Virus record (IMG/VR): IMGVR_UViG_2869953405_000005
Reading direction: 5' to 3' (one strand)
DNA from: a virus
Taxonomy: Duplodnaviria > Heunggongvirae > Uroviricota > Caudoviricetes
Length of the DNA stretch: 15,464 nt
Below the pieces are notes generated by a model that was given only the letters and a program-made list of their open reading frames with translations, had not been told where the DNA came from and did no database searches. Below, piece after piece: positions 1,348 to 10,047 of the stretch (within the stretch, counting starts at the first letter, position 1; each line of letters starts with the position of its first letter). A program made the translations under genes and the position numbers.

Positions 1348-1737
1348 TCACAACAGCACCTTCTGAAAATTACCCTGATAGAAAGCCAGTACACGCTGCA
1401 TAGCTTCGCTCTTCCGGCACTCGCTACAGATTATGTTTTGACGCCTGTCGTAGCGGCGTATTTCTCCGTCTGGTAATGACCAGATAAGGTCAGGATCAAC
1501 CACAGATGGTTTCTTCAGATTTGCCCTTGAGAGTTTTTTGCGGGCGTTTTGCCAGTCCTTACGCGCCTGTTCAGACGGGAATAACCCGTAACCAGAGTTG
1601 TATACATCGCCACTGGCAACCAGCTCTCTGGCGAGAACACTCATCAGATATCTTGTCGCACCTGTCTTGGCTTCCAGTTGCCGCAACGTCTCGCGACCGC
1701 TCAGACGTACAAGTTCAACAACCTGCCCTTTAATTTT
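1348..1737 (-). pseudogene. 5'-truncated gene fragment (HTH-like region), cut by IS600
   Basis: Minus-strand frame is open from the IS600 boundary (1737) to the stop at 1348; the apparent start is only a TTG at 1686 with no RBS; product not recognised. Confidence 0.4.
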
Positions 1738-1801
1738 TGAGGTAGCCTGAGTTTAACGGACACTCCTTCCTGAAATAGAATGGCATCAGAAGGAGCTAAT
1801 A

Positions 1802-2104
1802 ATGAGCAGAAAAACCCAACGTTACTCTAAAGAGTTCAAAGCCGAAGCTGTCAGAACGGTTCCTGAAAATCAACTTTCGATCAGTGAAGGCGCTTCCCGA
1901 TTATCTCTTCCTGAAGGCACTTTAGGACAATGGGTTACCGCCGCCAGAAAAGGGCTCGGTACTCCTGGTTCCCGCACGGTGGCTGAACTGGAATCTGAAA
2001 TTCTGCAACTGCGTAAGGCGTTAAATGAAGCTCGCCTTGAGCGAGATATATTAAAAAAAGCAACAGCGTATTTTGCACAGGAGTCGCTGAAAAATACGCG
2101 TTAA
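1802..2104 (+). CDS. IS600 OrfA (IS3-family transposase, N-terminal HTH part)
   Basis: 100-aa ORF, identical to ORF 10048..10350; RBS GGAG before the ATG. Confidence 0.9.
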   Translation: MSRKTQRYSKEFKAEAVRTVPENQLSISEGASRLSLPEGTLGQWVTAARKGLGTPGSRTVAELESEILQLRKALNEARLERDILKKATAYFAQESLKNTR

Positions 2105-2139
2105 TCGAACAATGGCGACAACAATTTCCCATTGAAGCG

Positions 2140-2958
2140 ATGTGTCAGGTATTTGGTGTATCCAGGAGCGGTTATTACAACTGGGTACAGCATGAACCCT
2201 CAGACAGAAAACAAAGTGATGAGCGGCTAAAACTGGAGATTAAGGTGGCACATATCCGCACTCGCGAAACATATGGAACCCGGCGGCACCAGACGGAGCT
2301 GGCAGAGAATGGCATCATCGTTGGTCGTGACCGACTGGCACGTCTTCGTAAGGAGCTAAGGCTACGCTGTAAGCAGAAACGCAAGTTCAGAGCGACTACG
2401 AACTCGAACCACAATCTGCCAGTTGCGCCAAATCTGCTGAACCAGACGTTCGCTCCTACAGCACCAAATCAGGTCTGGGTGGCGGACCTGACGTATGTTG
2501 CCACACAGGAGGGATGGTTGTACCTCGCTGGCATCAAAGATGTTTATACGTGCGAAATTGTCGGCTACGCCATGGGAGAGCGCATGACAAAAGAGCTGAC
2601 AGGTAAAGCCCTGTTTATGGCGCTCAGGAGCCAGCGCCCACCTGCCGGGCTAATCCACCACTCTGATCGAGGTTCACAGTACTGCGCATACGATTACCGG
2701 GTCATACAGGAGCAGTCTGGTCTGAAAACATCAATGTCGCGTAAAGGTAACTGTTACGACAACGCTCCGATGGAAAGCTTCTGGGGAACGCTGAAAAATG
2801 AGAGCCTGAGCCACTATCGTTTTAATAACCGGGATGAAGCCATCTCAGTAATACGGGAATACATTGAGATTTTCTACAATCGTCAGCGTCGTCACTCTCG
2901 TCTGGGGAATATCTCCCCGGCAGCCTTCAGGGAAAAATATCATCAGATGGCTGCTTAA
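2140..2958 (+). CDS. IS600 OrfB (DDE transposase catalytic part, normally expressed as OrfAB by -1 frameshift)
   Basis: 272-aa ORF in the -1 frame relative to orfA; integrase-core-like sequence (HSDRGSQY...). Confidence 0.9.
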   Translation: MCQVFGVSRSGYYNWVQHEPSDRKQSDERLKLEIKVAHIRTRETYGTRRHQTELAENGIIVGRDRLARLRKELRLRCKQKRKFRATTNSNHNLPVAPNLLNQTFAPTAPNQVWVADLTYVATQEGWLYLAGIKDVYTCEIVGYAMGERMTKELTGKALFMALRSQRPPAGLIHHSDRGSQYCAYDYRVIQEQSGLKTSMSRKGNCYDNAPMESFWGTLKNESLSHYRFNNRDEAISVIREYIEIFYNRQRRHSRLGNISPAAFREKYHQMAA

Positions 2959-3001
2959 AAAAAGAACAAATGGTAGTGTCCGCTATTGCCAGTACACCTC
3001 A

Positions 3002-3143
3002 GGGTATAAGGGGTTATGGCCACCGGACTACCAAACGGCTGCCAGCCCTCTTTCAGTTTATGTGTCAGCTTTTCCGCAAGATCTGACGGCGGCGCCGCCC
3101 TGACAACATCATAGTGTTTAAATGCCATGGTTCTTTCCACCAT
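3002..3143 (-). pseudogene. N-terminal fragment of a small gene interrupted by the IS600 end
   Basis: Minus-strand ORF MVERTMAFKHYDVVRAAPPSDLAEKLTHKLKEGWQPFGSPVAITPY runs into the IS600 terminus at 3001; GGTGGAAAG precedes the second ATG (3126-3128). Confidence 0.3.
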
Positions 3144-3388: not shown

Positions 3389-3724
3389 ATGAAGTGGATT
3401 GTGATTGATACAGTTATCCAGCCATCATGCGGAATATCTTTTTCAGTCATATGGAGTAAAATAAAATTAATAATCTGGTATCAATCGGATGCTTTCTTAC
3501 CTCCTGAAAGTATATTTACACTGACTCACACAGGCATCATGCTCAATAACAAAGTGCTACCTGTAACCATTTACAACGTAGTACCATTCAATAAAACATT
3601 CTGGAATTCAATCAAAAATAGCCAGGAATGCCCTACAAATACAGATAACGTATTGAATGAATGCTTTAATAACCGTTGCACTCTGCAAATATGTCCTTAT
3701 GGACTAAAACAACAAAGTCCATAA
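3389..3724 (+). CDS. hypothetical Cys-rich small protein (111 aa), orphan
   Basis: ATG preceded by AAGGA about 8 nt upstream; 6 of 12 Ile codons are ATA (manual count); C-terminal third has 5 Cys; lies in AT-rich DNA; no family recognised. Confidence 0.45.
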
Positions 3725-3758
3725 GGAGTTTACTCACATCTGACAAAATCAATATAAA

Positions 3759-3780
3759 CAGCCCCTCCGGAGAGGGGCTG
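3759..3780 (-). terminator. intrinsic-terminator-like hairpin (9-bp perfect stem, 4-nt loop) with T-rich tract on the minus strand
   Basis: CAGCCCCTC-CGGA-GAGGGGCTG; on the minus strand it is followed by TTTATATTGATTTTG; no T-tract on the plus strand. Confidence 0.45.
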
Positions 3781-4171
3781 GAGAGTGGCGCTATGTGCCA
3801 TTGCATGGTGCCGGGTGCCTCCCGGTGAATTCAGTACCAGCACCTGAATCCGCGATTATCCCATATACCTACTCGCTGATTGCCCCTCCGCACAGGGGGA
3901 TTCACCATGCCAGTTTCTTTTAACAAACTCCCCGCAAACCAGACAACAGTCAACCGCCTGAATTGTGAAGTATTTAAAAATTTCTCCCGCTAACTGATAC
4001 CCGGCTAACAGTCTGGCGTTTTCTTTTTCAGCAACGGGAAAGCAACAACCACCACACCCGCCACCAGCACACCGTCAGCCAGCACTGACATTATCCGGCT
4101 GCTGCAATGCCATTCACAAAAACAGTAAGCAATCACTTTTTACCGTAACAGGTGATAATCCAGATATGTAT

Positions 4172-4525
4172 CTACCCCAGATGAGTAATCCGAAGTTCAT
4201 CCATACCACAGGTCCTGGCTATTCTGTTGTACTCCTGAACAAGAGCAAATAATTCTGAATTAGCAACCATGAACTCATCGCAAACCCTCTGTATAGCATC
4301 ACTATTCAGAATAATAACGTCTCTTCCCGAAAGACGATCAGGAGTACAGAACAAAACTGTCAAACGGCTGAAGGCCTTTGCTCGTGCTGCATTGACTATA
4401 TCAATACGCTGCCTAAGGATGAAACACCCCGACGCCTCATCAATATTCACTCTACCCACACCATATGAATGATAAATATTTAATGCTGAAAAAACCATTA
4501 GACCGTATAACAAACACTCAATCAA
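4172..4525 (-). CDS. hypothetical protein (117 aa), doubtful
   Basis: ORF opens right after a stop with a TTG at 4525 and no Shine-Dalgarno; first ATG is codon 10; unrecognised; may be a gene remnant. Confidence 0.2.
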   Translation of the reverse strand: MIECLLYGLMVFSALNIYHSYGVGRVNIDEASGCFILRQRIDIVNAARAKAFSRLTVLFCTPDRLSGRDVIILNSDAIQRVCDEFMVANSELFALVQEYNRIARTCGMDELRITHLG

Positions 4526-4635
4526 TACTTAACAGAACTTTTATTTTTGACAAACATAAAATATTTTCAACAATATCCTGAGCCAGGTATATTTCAGTAT
4601 AAGGCTCTGCCGGAAGGAATCTGGAAGAATGAATA

Positions 4636-4712
4636 TGGCGCGCTGTACTGGATTCGAACCAGTGACCGATTGCTTAGAAGGCAATTGCTCTGTCCGGCTG
4701 AGCTAACAACGC
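4636..4712 (-). tRNA. tRNA-Arg (anticodon UCU)
   Basis: 77-nt cloverleaf folded by hand: acceptor GCGTTGT/ACAGCGC, D-stem GCTC/GAGC, anticodon stem ATTGC/GCAAT with loop CTTCTAA, T-arm ACTGG-TTCGAAT-CCAGT, encoded CCA. Confidence 0.85.
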
Positions 4713-4812
4713 TGAATACCGATAATGGACCGCCATCGGGGACCCGCCCCCGCACCAACAACCCTGTTATCGTGTCGTCTGCTCTTCCTGATAAGCTAAT
4801 GGCGGTTTGTGA

Positions 4813-4888
4813 TGGTGGCCCTTGCTGGATTTGAACCAGCGACCTGGCGATTATGAGTCGCTCGCTCTCACCACTGAGCTAAAGGGCC
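4813..4888 (-). tRNA. tRNA with CAU anticodon, ileX/ileZ-like (tRNA-Ile2; Met not excluded)
   Basis: 76 nt: acceptor GGCCCTT/AAGGGCC, anticodon loop CTCATAA, T-arm GCTGG-TTCAAAT-CCAGC, encoded CCA; resembles recalled E. coli ileX but diverged. Confidence 0.8.
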
Positions 4889-4924
4889 GGGAGCAGAATA
4901 ATAACGGTCCGTAATTAATTCCGC

Positions 4925-4949
4925 AATAAAAAACCCGCTCGGCGGCGGG
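4925..4949 (-). terminator. intrinsic terminator between Q-like gene and tRNAs (tR'-like candidate)
   Basis: On the minus strand CCCGC-CGCCGA-GCGGG is followed by TTTTTTATTG. Confidence 0.5.
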
Positions 4950-4990
4950 TTGTAGAAACTCTTCTAACGTCAGGCATAAAACGCCCATAG

Positions 4991-5845
4991 TTATGACGAA
5001 TTTACCACAGATTCCGGAAAAATCAACCTAGTTACCTTTTTTAACTGCCGCTCAGCCCATGCTTCTTCAATATCAAACCGAGTCACCAGCGCATCATAGA
5101 ATTTCTTAACTGTTTTTTCCCATGACGCGCGTGTTATCTGGTTTGTCACCTCGCATATAGCATTAAATGCCTCCGTTGATGGTAGTCTTTCATAGCCACG
5201 ACCACCACAACGCTGGCAGTCTCTGATAACAGGCATACCACGTTTTACCGACTCTTCACGATGAATGGCGACACCACGCCCACGGCAATCCTTACAGGCG
5301 GTGGAAACCTCACCCTTTCCGCCACACTCCGGACAGGCAACTTTTACCACCTCCCTGACTTTTTTCCATTCTTCCCAGTAAGACGGATACACACCTTTCG
5401 TACACTTTGCCCATACCGGCGGCTTACCATCCGGATACTGGACCTTGTTTGTAAAAACTACGCTTTCAATAAATTTTTCCCCATAGCAACAAGGGCACTG
5501 CTTTTTACTCGCTGCGCTGCGGGCATAATCCTCAAAAGCGTACGAAGCCATAATGCGCATCACTACCGGTTTTATTTCTGCCGGAAGTTTTCTCAACGCC
5601 GCCACACGATCGCACCGACTGAGTGCATAATCTGCCAGTAATTCTGTTGCCCGCGCCCTGTCATTCATACTGATGCCCATTTTCCCCAGGAACGCAGAAA
5701 ACCCCATCTCAGCCCGATTCTGTGTCATGCCCTGCGCGGCCATCACATCAGTGATACTCAGCGCATCTTTTGACGTTGAGGCCGATGCATCGGTCAGGCA
5801 AGGGGATTTTGGGGAGTAGTATTTCGGTAAATCTTCCAGTTTCAT
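4991..5845 (-). CDS. putative lambdoid late antiterminator Q-like protein (284 aa, DnaJ-type Zn-finger motifs)
   Basis: Sits between rusA and terminator/tRNAs as in lambdoid late-control regions; CPECGGKG, CKDCRGRG and CQRCGGRG motifs; ATGA overlap with the rusA stop; Q assignment rests on position and motifs, not a verified alignment. Confidence 0.5.
   Translation of the reverse strand: MKLEDLPKYYSPKSPCLTDASASTSKDALSITDVMAAQGMTQNRAEMGFSAFLGKMGISMNDRARATELLADYALSRCDRVAALRKLPAEIKPVVMRIMASYAFEDYARSAASKKQCPCCYGEKFIESVVFTNKVQYPDGKPPVWAKCTKGVYPSYWEEWKKVREVVKVACPECGGKGEVSTACKDCRGRGVAIHREESVKRGMPVIRDCQRCGGRGYERLPSTEAFNAICEVTNQITRASWEKTVKKFYDALVTRFDIEEAWAERQLKKVTRLIFPESVVNSS
4999..5026 (-). promoter_or_regulatory. 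candidate late promoter (pR'-like): TTGATT, 16-nt spacer, TAAATT on the minus strand
   Basis: Hexamers read from the sequence; overlaps the 3' end of the Q-like ORF; predicted start lies about 40-60 nt upstream of the terminator at 4925-4949. Confidence 0.25.
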
Positions 5846-6216
5846 TTTTTGACCTGCTCTTCATGCATTATGGGGTAAATCTTCACCCCCAGACGTCCAC
5901 CAGATACTGGCTGACCACGAACGATATTGATTTCATCAAACTGCTCATCGTCCATTAACACTCCCGCATGTGTCAGTGCATCCAGTGGTGCTTTCAGGAT
6001 ATTGTCCAGGTCACGACGGCGCTTATCCGGTGGCTCTGCAATAATCTTTATCGCCAGTCTTCCGGACAGGCTTAATTTCAGTCGCTGCTGACGGACAATA
6101 AGCGCCACATCCCGGCGATAACGCTCACCGGCTTTTGATACAAAATATGTGTTGTCACGACGTCGCCAGTAAGTATTCACCGTCGGCGGATAAGGTAAAA
6201 TAAACTCATGACGCAT
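5842..6216 (-). CDS. rusA: RusA-family Holliday junction resolvase (124 aa)
   Basis: Resembles recalled E. coli RusA (RRRDLDN... motif region); nin-region position upstream of Q. Confidence 0.8.
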   Translation of the reverse strand: MRHEFILPYPPTVNTYWRRRDNTYFVSKAGERYRRDVALIVRQQRLKLSLSGRLAIKIIAEPPDKRRRDLDNILKAPLDALTHAGVLMDDEQFDEINIVRGQPVSGGRLGVKIYPIMHEEQVKK

Positions 6217-6807: not shown

Positions 6808-8777
<1,970 letters not shown>

Positions 8778-9025
8778 GTTGATGTCCTTTCTGGTGTGAG
8801 AACCTTAAGGAAACAACATGGTGTAGCAGCCAGCCAGTTATTTCTCTGGCGTAAGCAATACCAGGAAGGAAGTCTTACTGCTGTCGCCGCCGGAGAACAG
8901 GTTGTTCCTGCCTCTGAACTTGCTGCCGCCATGAAGCAGATTAAAGAACTCCAGCGCCTGCTCGGCAAGAAAACGATGGAAAATGAACTCCTCAAAGAAG
9001 CCGTTGAATATGGACGGGCAAAAAA

Positions 9026-9931
9026 GTGGATAGCGCACGCGCCCTTATTGCCCGGGGATGGGGAGTAAGCTTAGTCAGCCGTTGTCTCCGGGTGTCGCGT
9101 GCGCAGTTGCACGTCATTCTCAGACGAACCGATGACTGGATGGATGGCCGCCGCAGTCGTCACACTGATGATACGGATGTGCTTCTCCGTATACACCATG
9201 TTATCGGAGAGCTGCCCACGTATGGTTATCGTCGGGTATGGGCGCTGCTTCGCAGACAGGCAGAACTTGATGGTATGCCTGCGATCAATGCCAAACGTGT
9301 TTACCGGATCATGCGCCAGAATGCGCTGTTGCTTGAGCGAAAACCTGCTGTACCGCCATCGAAACGGGCACATACAGGCAGAGTGGCCGTGAAAGAAAGC
9401 AATCAGCGATGGTGCTCTGACGGGTTCGAGTTCTGCTGTGATAACGGAGAGAGACTGCGTGTCACGTTCGCGCTGGACTGCTGTGATCGTGAGGCACTGC
9501 ACTGGGCGGTGACTACCGGCGGCTTCAACAGTGAAACAGTACAGGACGTCATGCTGGGAGCGGTGGAACGCCGCTTCGGCAACGATCTTCCGTCGTCTCC
9601 AGTGGAGTGGCTGACGGATAATGGTTCATGCTACCGGGCTAATGAAACACGCCAGTTCGCCCGGATGTTGGGACTTGAACCGAAGAACACGGCGGTGCGG
9701 AGTCCGGAGAGTAACGGAATAGCAGAGAGCTTCGTGAAAACGATAAAGCGTGACTACATCAGTATCATGCCCAAACCAGACGGGTTAACGGCAGCAAAGA
9801 ACCTTGCAGAGGCGTTCGAGCATTATAACGAATGGCATCCGCATAGTGCGCTGGGTTATCGCTCGCCACGGGAATATCTGCGGCAGCGGGCTTGTAATGG
9901 GTTAAGTGATAACAGATGTCTGGAAATATAG
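9026..9931 (+). CDS. insD: IS2 InsD (orfB, DDE transposase part)
   Basis: 301-aa ORF matching recalled IS2 InsD; overlaps the insC end at the A6G frameshift site. Confidence 0.9.
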
Positions 9932-10047
9932 GGGCAAATCCAGTCCGTTATAAAAACGCCGGTAAATCGTTCCCAGAGAACCGTGAGGTAGCCTGAGTTT
10001 AACGGACACTCCTTCCTGAAATAGAATGGCATCAGAAGGAGCTAATA

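Follow-up and report, generated by a model that had tools for sequence, protein, structure and literature searches.

The stretch of Caudoviricetes DNA analyzed here (IMG/VR record IMGVR_UViG_2869953405_000005; 15,464 nucleotides, hereafter the window) carries two closely spaced tRNA genes together with ipaH, a gene for a type III secretion system (T3SS) effector. This raises the question of which genes the tRNAs serve. A first-pass annotation, made from the sequence alone, had proposed that the tRNA pair, decoding AGA and, if lysidine-modified, AUA, is matched to the rare codons of the resident morons. Here, we ask what the two tRNA genes are, where they come from, and whether their match to codon usage is particular to the morons beside them or is shared by foreign DNA in general.

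Identity of the two tRNA genes

ARAGORN called only two tRNA genes in the window, tRNA-Arg(tct) at positions 4636 to 4712 and tRNA(cat) at positions 4813 to 4888. Both are on the minus strand, in the same orientation as the gene for the antitermination protein Q (positions 4991 to 5845). Both align over the full length of the Rfam tRNA model RF00005 (model positions 1 to 71 of 71), at 68.0 bits for the Arg gene and 72.5 bits for the CAU gene against a gathering score of 29. With a finder call and a covariance score above the gathering score, each qualifies as a tRNA with a canonical cloverleaf, and the anticodons, UCU and CAU, are those read in the first-pass annotation. The corresponding genes score 70.1 and 72.5 bits in a Stx2a phage and 71.7 and 68.4 bits in phage phiP27. 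Thus, the scores in the window equal those of the phage counterparts, and neither gene is pseudogene-like.

The CAU gene is labeled tRNA-Met by ARAGORN and in some phage records, whereas RefSeq/PGAP names it tRNA-Ile in near-identical Escherichia coli loci. Its acceptor stem, GGCCCTT/AAGGGCC, forms the pairs C4-G69 and C5-G68, as in ileX, where metT has T4 and A5. The anticodon stem, like C4 and C5, is that of ileX and not of metT, and the acceptor, anticodon, and T stems differ throughout from those of K-12 metT. These two acceptor pairs are said to have been described by Ikeuchi et al. in 2005 as recognition determinants of TilS. Taken together, the sequence features clearly point to a tRNA of the Ile2 (ileX/ileZ) type, as the first-pass annotation had allowed, and not to a tRNA-Met, and the gene deserves the label tRNA-Ile2 in annotation. 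It is 100% identical to the gene in the ileZ position of the Stx2a phage Stx2_EH2201 and differs by 1 base from the ileZ of phiP27. In contrast, 8 positions differ from E. coli K-12 ileX (68 of 76 identical), which bears out the divergence from the host gene stated in the first-pass annotation. Rfam flags an A27-C43 mismatch atop the anticodon stem of ileZ.

The Arg gene is an argO allele. It matches the argO of a Stx2a phage at 76 of 77 positions, whereas K-12 argU is much more distant, with about 20 of 77 positions different. The gene has the anticodon UCU, A20 in the D loop (AGCCGGACA), and C35, and argU likewise has A20 and C35; these two nucleotides are identity elements for ArgRS. Several of the differences between ileZ and ileX and between argO and argU are compensatory stem changes. 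Both tRNAs are near-identical to phage alleles, and two isolated phages, mEp460 and phiP27, carry the CAU tRNA as well. These comparisons indicate that both tRNAs are of phage origin, an origin that had been suggested for the CAU tRNA.

Other phage tRNAs, those of T5-like phages, have a described role in escaping host defenses. The tRNAs here could likewise be replacements that escape tRNA-targeting defenses or toxins, such as anticodon nucleases or colicin D-type cleavage of tRNA-Arg. The divergence of both tRNA bodies from the host copies fits this reading, and so does a small gene just downstream (positions 4005 to 4136, minus strand) that encodes a 43-amino-acid (aa) DUF3927/TciB-like membrane protein and falls in a "resistance to colicin" PHROG (phrog_1470, E = 7.8e-13; PF13064 in identical Shigella sonnei loci). 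However, ileZ and argO have the same anticodon loops as their host counterparts ileX and argU, although it is there that escape variants should differ, and evasion of an anticodon nuclease is therefore unlikely. Moreover, the choice of tRNAs, the two rarest-codon isoacceptors and no others, fits codon supply. We consider a role in defense escape very improbable.

The spacer between the tRNA genes

The two tRNA genes are separated by exactly 100 bp (positions 4713 to 4812). It had been suggested that this spacer may be the remnant of the third tRNA of the ileZ-argN-argO triad, and the alignment agrees. Read on the minus strand, positions 4805 to 4726 align to the argN(UCG) gene of Stx2a phages, first over the 5' strand of the acceptor stem and the D arm and then over the T stem, the 3' strand of the acceptor stem, and CCA. 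In place of the 19-nt anticodon stem-loop are 26 unrelated nucleotides, and the 6-nt T loop reads GCGGGT instead of TTCGAGT and lacks TTC. The spacer of phiP27 has the same 26-nt replacement and a normal T loop. None of the loci examined provided a donor for the 26-nt replacement arm; there were only chance matches of 10 to 15 nt.

ARAGORN made no call for this remnant, and Rfam gave no tRNA match to it even at E <= 10. We also considered whether the spacer could be a noncanonical functional tRNA or another known RNA. The predicted fold is cloverleaf-like, the anticodon arm being replaced by a 7-bp stem with a 3-nt loop, but it is not significantly better than the folds of shuffled sequences (z of only -1.3 to -1.6). 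The single Rfam match at E <= 10 was a meaningless 9-bit match to a long noncoding RNA.

We then have the evidence of natural variation in a sample of 121 cassettes (the window and 120 IMG/VR contigs, the latter retrieved by a pattern with anchors in ileZ and argO). Of these, 82 have an intact Arg(UCG) gene in the middle and 32 have the disrupted allele seen in the window, and the exact sequence of the window is the single commonest variant (19 cassettes). Among the variants of the disrupted allele, a run of G grows from 5 to 6 to 12, and one G>C change breaks a pair of the predicted stem. Such expansions, together with the pair-breaking change, are a pattern of neutral decay. The weak fold z-score, the pair-breaking variants, and the growth of the G run count against a functional spacer along with the Rfam result, and we rejected that interpretation. 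On the alignment, the 100-bp spacer is best described as a decayed argN, a pseudogene at positions 4726 to 4805 on the minus strand. Because the middle gene is the most variable member in the sample, with an anticodon that is sometimes UUU or UCU, argN is evidently the dispensable member of the cassette. The 80-bp remnant accounts for the odd spacer between the two tRNAs. It also adds a small point to what is known of the family: the phiP27-type ileZ-argO "pair" is a triad in which the anticodon arm of argN has been replaced, although this may have been noticed before.

The prophage remnant and its relatives

Over 11.7 kb, the window matches the 4.84-Mb chromosome LR213449 at 100% identity, and it is at least 99.9% identical to CP010829, the sequence of S. 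sonnei FORC_011 (PMC5447701). It is a chromosomal prophage remnant of S. sonnei at yecD/yecE that has been cut up by insertion sequence (IS) elements. Packed into 15 kb are two copies of IS1, two of IS600 (IS1 interrupts one of these), an element of the IS21 family, and IS2. Four S. sonnei genomes span the remnant (L127, L128, L129, and L132), with an identity of at least 99.9%, and tRNA scans of L127 and L128 found both tRNA genes.

On the minus strand, the order of features is RusA (positions 5842 to 6216), Q, a hairpin, the tRNA cassette, an ORF of 108 aa, the DUF3927/TciB-like ORF, and an STnc100-family small RNA, with an IraM-like gene on the opposite strand. The 108-aa ORF (positions 4172 to 4498, minus strand) lies directly downstream of argO and matches phrog_2873 over its full length (E = 2.8e-70); its homologues are unnamed and occur only in E. 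coli and Shigella. The STnc100-family prophage RNA (positions 3750 to 3939, minus strand; Rfam RF02076, 132.4 bits against a gathering score of 47) has its own terminator at positions 3780 to 3759, and STnc100 is also found downstream of the cargo slot in a Stx2a phage and in E. coli TK3889. The IraM-like anti-adaptor gene occupies positions 3389 to 3724 on the plus strand (NCBIfam NF007393, 162 bits against a cutoff of 121).

The ipaH gene (positions 13713 to 15464, minus strand; NCBIfam IpaH_Shig, 563.5 bits) encodes a T3SS E3 ubiquitin-ligase effector, which PGAP names as the IpaHd allele in enteroinvasive E. coli (EIEC). It adjoins remnants of plus-strand tail fiber genes. It lies 9 kb from the cassette, with four or five IS elements in between, and its orientation is inverted with respect to the Q-tRNA module. 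Between Q and ipaH are the IS21-family element, IS2, and the IS600 split by IS1, and Q points away from ipaH.

The opposed orientations suggested that the Q-tRNA module and ipaH had come from two different prophages. This was not the case. In EIEC FDAARGOS_944, yecD/yecE is likewise the site of a lambdoid prophage, which is near-complete there and has the order int, a gene for a LexA-family (cI-type) repressor, replication genes, RusA, Q, ileZ, STnc100, iraM, lysis genes, terminase, head, tail, J, lom, tail fiber, DUF4376, ipaHd (in reverse), and dinI. Since this prophage is collinear and sits at the same site, a single prophage lineage accounts for both the Q-tRNA module and ipaH, and we rejected the idea of two sources. 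The comparison indicates that the S. sonnei arrangement is derived, through an inversion and the deletion of lysis and morphogenesis genes.

The same relatives bear on whether the cassette is needed. In FDAARGOS_944, 705 bp (positions 4051 to 4755 of the window) were lost through GGTTGTTG microhomology, and the deletion took argO and the two small ORFs after it, together with the 3' portion of the argN remnant. Another S. sonnei genome, L130, has an identical ipaH in a different neighborhood without the Q-tRNA module. With the module absent in the one and argO deleted in the other, the cassette is dispensable.

Because tRNA genes are common attachment sites, the pair could also have been host chromosomal tRNA genes that mark the integration site of the prophage. 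However, in intact prophages and in isolated phage genomes the tRNAs lie internally, between Q and the lysis genes, and this position refutes such an origin. The prophage ends at yecD and yecE, 10 to 20 kb away, and the sequences are unlike host ileX and argU.

Signals upstream of the cassette

A promoter-like element lies on the minus strand at positions 4898 to 4926. It consists of TTGCGG (4926 to 4921), a 17-bp spacer, and TATTAT (4903 to 4898), and it ends 9 nt before the 5' end of ileZ. Across the 120 IMG/VR loci, the arrangement TTGnnn-17-TATTAT followed by 9 to 10 nt to the tRNA is kept in at least four unrelated upstream contexts, in which ileZ is joined to the 3' end of a methylase gene, to the Q terminator, or to one of two other sequences. 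The -35 hexamer matches at only 3 of 6 positions, so the element was missed by a consensus scanner. This conservation across contexts is good indirect evidence for a putative sigma-70-type promoter of the cassette. With such a promoter-like motif of its own, the cassette could be expressed without induction of the prophage.

The Q gene ends upstream of this element. Its product of 284 aa belongs to Pfam PF03589 (E = 7e-55) and to PHROG 127 (Q-like), and its E. coli homologues are annotated "antitermination protein." The gene is 102 bp upstream of the cassette. Between its stop codon and the cassette, at positions 4924 to 4951 on the minus strand, is an intrinsic-terminator-like hairpin with a T run. 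The hairpin (4951 to 4932) has a 7-bp stem with 5 G-C pairs and is followed by TTTTTTATTG; it may be either the end of the Q transcript or a tR'-type terminator. With a terminator-like hairpin in this place, any link between the cassette and Q-dependent transcription is tentative.

E. coli TK3889, EIEC FDAARGOS_944, and phages share this layout of the late region, with the cassette downstream of Q and upstream of cargo and lysis genes. In lambdoid prophages, the cassette is a convenient marker of the cargo slot next to Q.

Distribution and conservation of the cassette

A 701-bp query made of the cassette and its flanks matched 3,080 of 5,426 complete E. coli genomes. It also matched phages mEp460 (100% coverage, 97.7% identity) and phiP27 and many Stx2 phages, and the matched cassettes always follow Q or a late-region methylase gene. 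In a scan of species-representative genomes, cassettes with exact flanks occurred only in Escherichia representatives and in two metagenome-assembled genomes that are probably misbinned. The order is ileZ, argN, and argO on one strand. The window keeps this order with two intact tRNAs, its middle gene being decayed. Thus, the element is the already well-known ileZ-argN-argO cassette of Escherichia and Shigella lambdoid (Shiga-toxin-type) prophages in its common two-tRNA form. The triad was reportedly first described by Plunkett et al. in 1999.

In 120 diverse contigs, ileZ is nearly invariant (pi = 0.0015 to 0.004), whereas the flanks vary 50-fold more. The variability of argO is intermediate and includes a compensatory double change in the T stem, from CACTGG/CCAGT to CAGTGG/CCACT, which argues for selection on that tRNA.

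These patterns speak for the family, and the remnant in the window could still be something else, namely, an inert relic in which the tRNAs are intact because the remnant is young and in which they have no meaningful expression or selective effect. The prophage is heavily degraded by IS1, IS600, IS21-family, and IS2 elements, deletion has removed its lysis and morphogenesis genes, and the Q-tRNA segment has been turned around with respect to the tail fiber-ipaH segment. The module is partly or wholly lost in relatives, and the adjoining argN has already decayed. On the other side, the near-invariance of ileZ and the compensatory changes in argO argue that selection acts on the family generally, and they are silent on this remnant. 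We regard an inert relic as quite unlikely as the explanation of the locus. Nevertheless, the phage of the window is dead, and with its lysis and morphogenesis genes gone the original beneficiaries of the cassette are absent; in this window the cassette may be a neutral leftover.

Rare-codon usage

The proposal that the tRNA pair is matched to the resident morons depends on how common ATA, AGA, and AGG are in these genes and in their surroundings. Together, these three codons make up 4.3 per 1,000 codons in 42 K-12 core genes and 6.0 in the 17 host genes that flank the EIEC prophage. The values are 14.8 in 16 morphogenesis genes of this prophage, 24.7 in 19 of its early, lysis, and Q genes, 26 to 30 in the four IS transposases of the window, 32 in Q, 34 to 36 in ipaH, 48 in the tail fiber gene, and 54 in the iraM-like gene, which owes its value to ATA only. 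The densest of the window is the 108-aa ORF, with 9 rare codons in its 117-codon reading from TTG (77 per 1,000 for the ORF at positions 4172 to 4525). Overall, compared with host genes, the horizontally acquired genes of the locus all have ATA, AGA, and AGG at 2.5 to 9 times the frequency.

The particulars of ipaH are as the first-pass annotation had read them. The gene has 10 ATA, 5 AGA, and 5 AGG codons among 583, and AGA, at codon 9, is the first for Arg. Of these codons, 8 ATA, 3 AGA, and 2 AGG lie among the N-terminal 290 and 2, 2, and 3 among the C-terminal 293. The IraM-like ORF is ATA-rich, as claimed (6 of 13 Ile codons); it has no AGA or AGG, and its GC content is 34.5%. Rare codons are more frequent in ipaHd than in host genes (odds ratio, 6.2; p = 7e-9) and than in the prophage morphogenesis genes (odds ratio, 2.5; p = 9e-4). 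However, there was no significant difference between ipaHd and the 19 early and lysis genes of the EIEC prophage (Fisher p = 0.12). In ipaH, ATA makes up 0.33 of the Ile codons and AGA plus AGG 0.31 of the Arg codons, approximately what is expected without any bias at a GC3 of 0.47.

A cargo rich in the codons of phage tRNAs is evidence of specific tuning only if it exceeds other mobile DNA in this respect. Since Q, the tail fiber gene, the IS transposases, and the early genes are also enriched, the "match" is one to foreign DNA in general and is not a tuning to morons. Thus, the first-pass proposal stood in part. Compared with host genes, ipaH and the IraM-like ORF are indeed enriched in rare codons, so that the refuting condition named in the first-pass annotation, no elevation over the genome, did not hold. 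However, the match is not specific to them, as other mobile genes are equally rich.

Several observations would nevertheless suit a tRNA pair that is specifically matched to ipaH and the iraM-like ORF and retained for them, so that domesticated tRNAs boost AT-rich virulence cargo in the lysogen. Among the named genes, ipaH and iraM have the highest rare-codon densities, with ipaHd above morphogenesis and host genes. The promoter-like element would permit expression without induction, both tRNAs are intact in an otherwise nearly stripped remnant that has stayed at least 99.9% identical in the four S. sonnei genomes, and the cassette and ipaHd occur in the same EIEC prophage lineage. The rest of the data counted against this reading. 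The early and lysis genes of the prophage resemble ipaHd, Q, the tail fiber gene, and the transposases are just as rich in these codons, iraM lacks AGA and AGG altogether, and the unbiased codon use of ipaH gives no sign of coadaptation. The identical cassette stands beside quite different cargo (stx2, TolA-like genes, or nothing) in thousands of genomes. Conversely, ipaHd is kept in EIEC despite the deletion of argO, and ipaH is kept in L130 without the module. Transcription of ipaH is under MxiE/IpgC control, which is unrelated to phage late control and also counts against tuning. We therefore consider specific tuning to the morons unlikely.

Proposed role of the cassette

We favor, with a probability of about three in four, the standard account for this cassette, in which this known two-tRNA form of the ileZ-argN-argO cassette supplies scarce isoacceptors for foreign coding sequence generally. 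The enrichment of ATA, AGA, and AGG across early and late phage genes, IS transposases, and morons means that the benefit would be a general one for foreign, unbiased coding sequence; ipaH and iraM would be only the AT-richest examples of the genes served.

The cassette is in its usual place, immediately after the late antiterminator gene Q and ahead of a variable cargo slot. Stx phages have stx2AB in this slot, and the window has the 108-aa ORF and the DUF3927 peptide there, with STnc100 and iraM after them. Transcription would start from the cassette's own sigma-70-type promoter and probably also come from Q-dependent late transcription. The transcript would be processed to tRNA-Ile2 and tRNA-Arg(UCU). 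The first would read AUA after the host TilS has turned C34 into lysidine, and the second would read AGA and, weakly, AGG. The outcome would be extra gene copies for the scarcest host isoacceptors, with any effect on translation following from these predicted steps.

In a bolder version of these steps, the cassette would work on its own, with constitutive transcription, and would still be active in the dead prophage. It would be retained because its extra tRNAs measurably raise translation of many Shigella virulence genes that are AT-rich and unbiased, such as the ipaH copies of chromosome and plasmid and other T3SS effectors, and it would no longer be an aid to phage replication. Such a domesticated virulence modulator appears improbable. 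A precedent for tRNA-linked control of virulence is leuX in uropathogenic E. coli, and if phage tRNAs did boost IpaH or other effectors, this would add a translational layer to virulence control in Shigella. Otherwise, the significance of the locus is small and lies mainly in correct annotation.

Comparison with known systems

Among the closest parallels of the cassette are those in the Stx2 phages of the 933W/Sp5 type. These have the same gene order and strand, with ileZ 100% and argO 76 of 77 identical, a common 40-bp upstream promoter-like region, and the same late-region site between Q and the cargo slot. In Stx2a phages, STnc100 and iraM follow the cargo as they do in the window. However, argN is intact in the Stx2 phages and a pseudogene here, and their cassette is behind a DNA methylase gene instead of directly behind Q. 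Their Q also belongs to another family (127 aa, compared with 284 aa in the window), and their cargo is stx2AB, where the window has the 108-aa ORF and DUF3927.

The Stx2e phage phiP27 (AJ298298) is closer with respect to the middle gene, as it has two annotated tRNAs, a spacer of about 100 bp, and the very same 26-nt replacement of the argN arm. It differs in the T loop of the remnant, which is TTCGAGT there and GCGGGT in the window, a second lesion. Its cargo is stx2e, and its cassette is 92% identical overall to that of the window.

The K-12 genes ileX/ileY and argU have the same anticodons as the pair in the window, whereas the tRNA bodies have diverged. Other lambdoid phages of the Shigella/Salmonella group (SfI, Sf6, ST64T, and P21) carry tRNA-Asn and tRNA-Thr genes just after Q, and the role proposed for these tRNAs is to supplement codons that are overused by the phage (PMC3636060). 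Their tRNAs share the position after Q and this rationale with those of the window, but the tRNA species are different and the cassette sequence is unrelated.

Variation in the tRNA cassette

In the ileZ gene of the cassette (window 4813-4888, minus strand), the uppermost pair of the anticodon stem is a mismatch, A27-C43, which Rfam flags. Host ileX has G-U at this position, whereas the A-C of ileZ is kept in every phage allele that we observed. Other parts of the cassette vary among the 120 IMG/VR contigs fetched with a pattern anchored in ileZ and argO. The middle tRNA has the anticodon UUU (Lys) in two contigs and UCU in one, and some argO alleles have a compensatory T-stem change, from CACTGG/CCAGT to CAGTGG/CCACT. 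In 4 of the 120, argO is truncated: directly past the anticodon loop it gives way to another sequence that resembles a DUF3927-type ORF. Exact matches to the cassette were also observed in MAG bins (loci L136 and L140 from the species-representative genome scan) that carry the names "Proteobacteria bacterium" and "uncultured Collinsella sp."; in the Collinsella bin, the match almost certainly comes from an Escherichia prophage contig that was binned wrongly.

Deletion and rearrangement at the locus

Compared with window 4051-4755, EIEC FDAARGOS_944 has a deletion of 705 bp that removed argO and both small ORFs; ileZ was kept. The junction (at ~4999-5006 of its locus, L134) lies within an 8-bp repeat, GGTTGTTG, one copy of which is in the DUF3927 ORF and the other in the replacement arm of the argN remnant. 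Against the collinear prophage of this EIEC strain, the Q-tRNA-iraM segment of the window is inverted, and the window is without any lysis, head or tail genes. The window is densely populated with IS elements (523-1249, 1737-3004, 6808-8777, ~8628-9931, and 9983-12023): two copies of IS1, an IS21-family element (istA/istB), IS2, and two copies of IS600, the second of which is interrupted by the second IS1 to leave two halves overlapping by 9 bp. In S. sonnei CP151334 (L130 14257-21752), IpaH is identical to that of the window, but beyond IS1 a different phage-like region, with a Dam methylase and a resolvase, replaces the IS21/RusA/Q/tRNA module. Therefore, the locus varies between strains.

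Possible late-operon context and the cargo slot

Within the 3' end of Q, we observed a candidate extended -10 promoter (TTGATT, 16 nt, TGgTAAATT; window 4999-5026, minus strand), with a strong hairpin and T-run about 45 nt downstream (4924-4951, minus strand). These could form a pR'/tR' pair yielding a very short leader RNA. If so, the tRNA cassette would belong to the Q-dependent late operon.

The cargo slot (4005-4498, minus strand), which in Stx phages holds stx2AB, here encodes a 108-aa ORF and a 43-aa DUF3927/TciB-like peptide. The 108-aa ORF is phrog_2873, has homologues in E. coli/Shigella only, and contains the highest ATA/AGA/AGG density of the window (9 such codons among the 117 of its TTG reading). 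At 3750-3939 (minus strand), we found a full-length match (132 bits) to the STnc100 family of prophage sRNAs, with its own terminator; the iraM-like gene is convergent with it. A 2026 preprint links STnc100 with the PasD sRNAs. An Stx2a phage has STnc100 at the equivalent position, just 3' of the cargo slot and after stx2B, and E. coli TK3889 likewise has it just 3' of the slot, as in the window.
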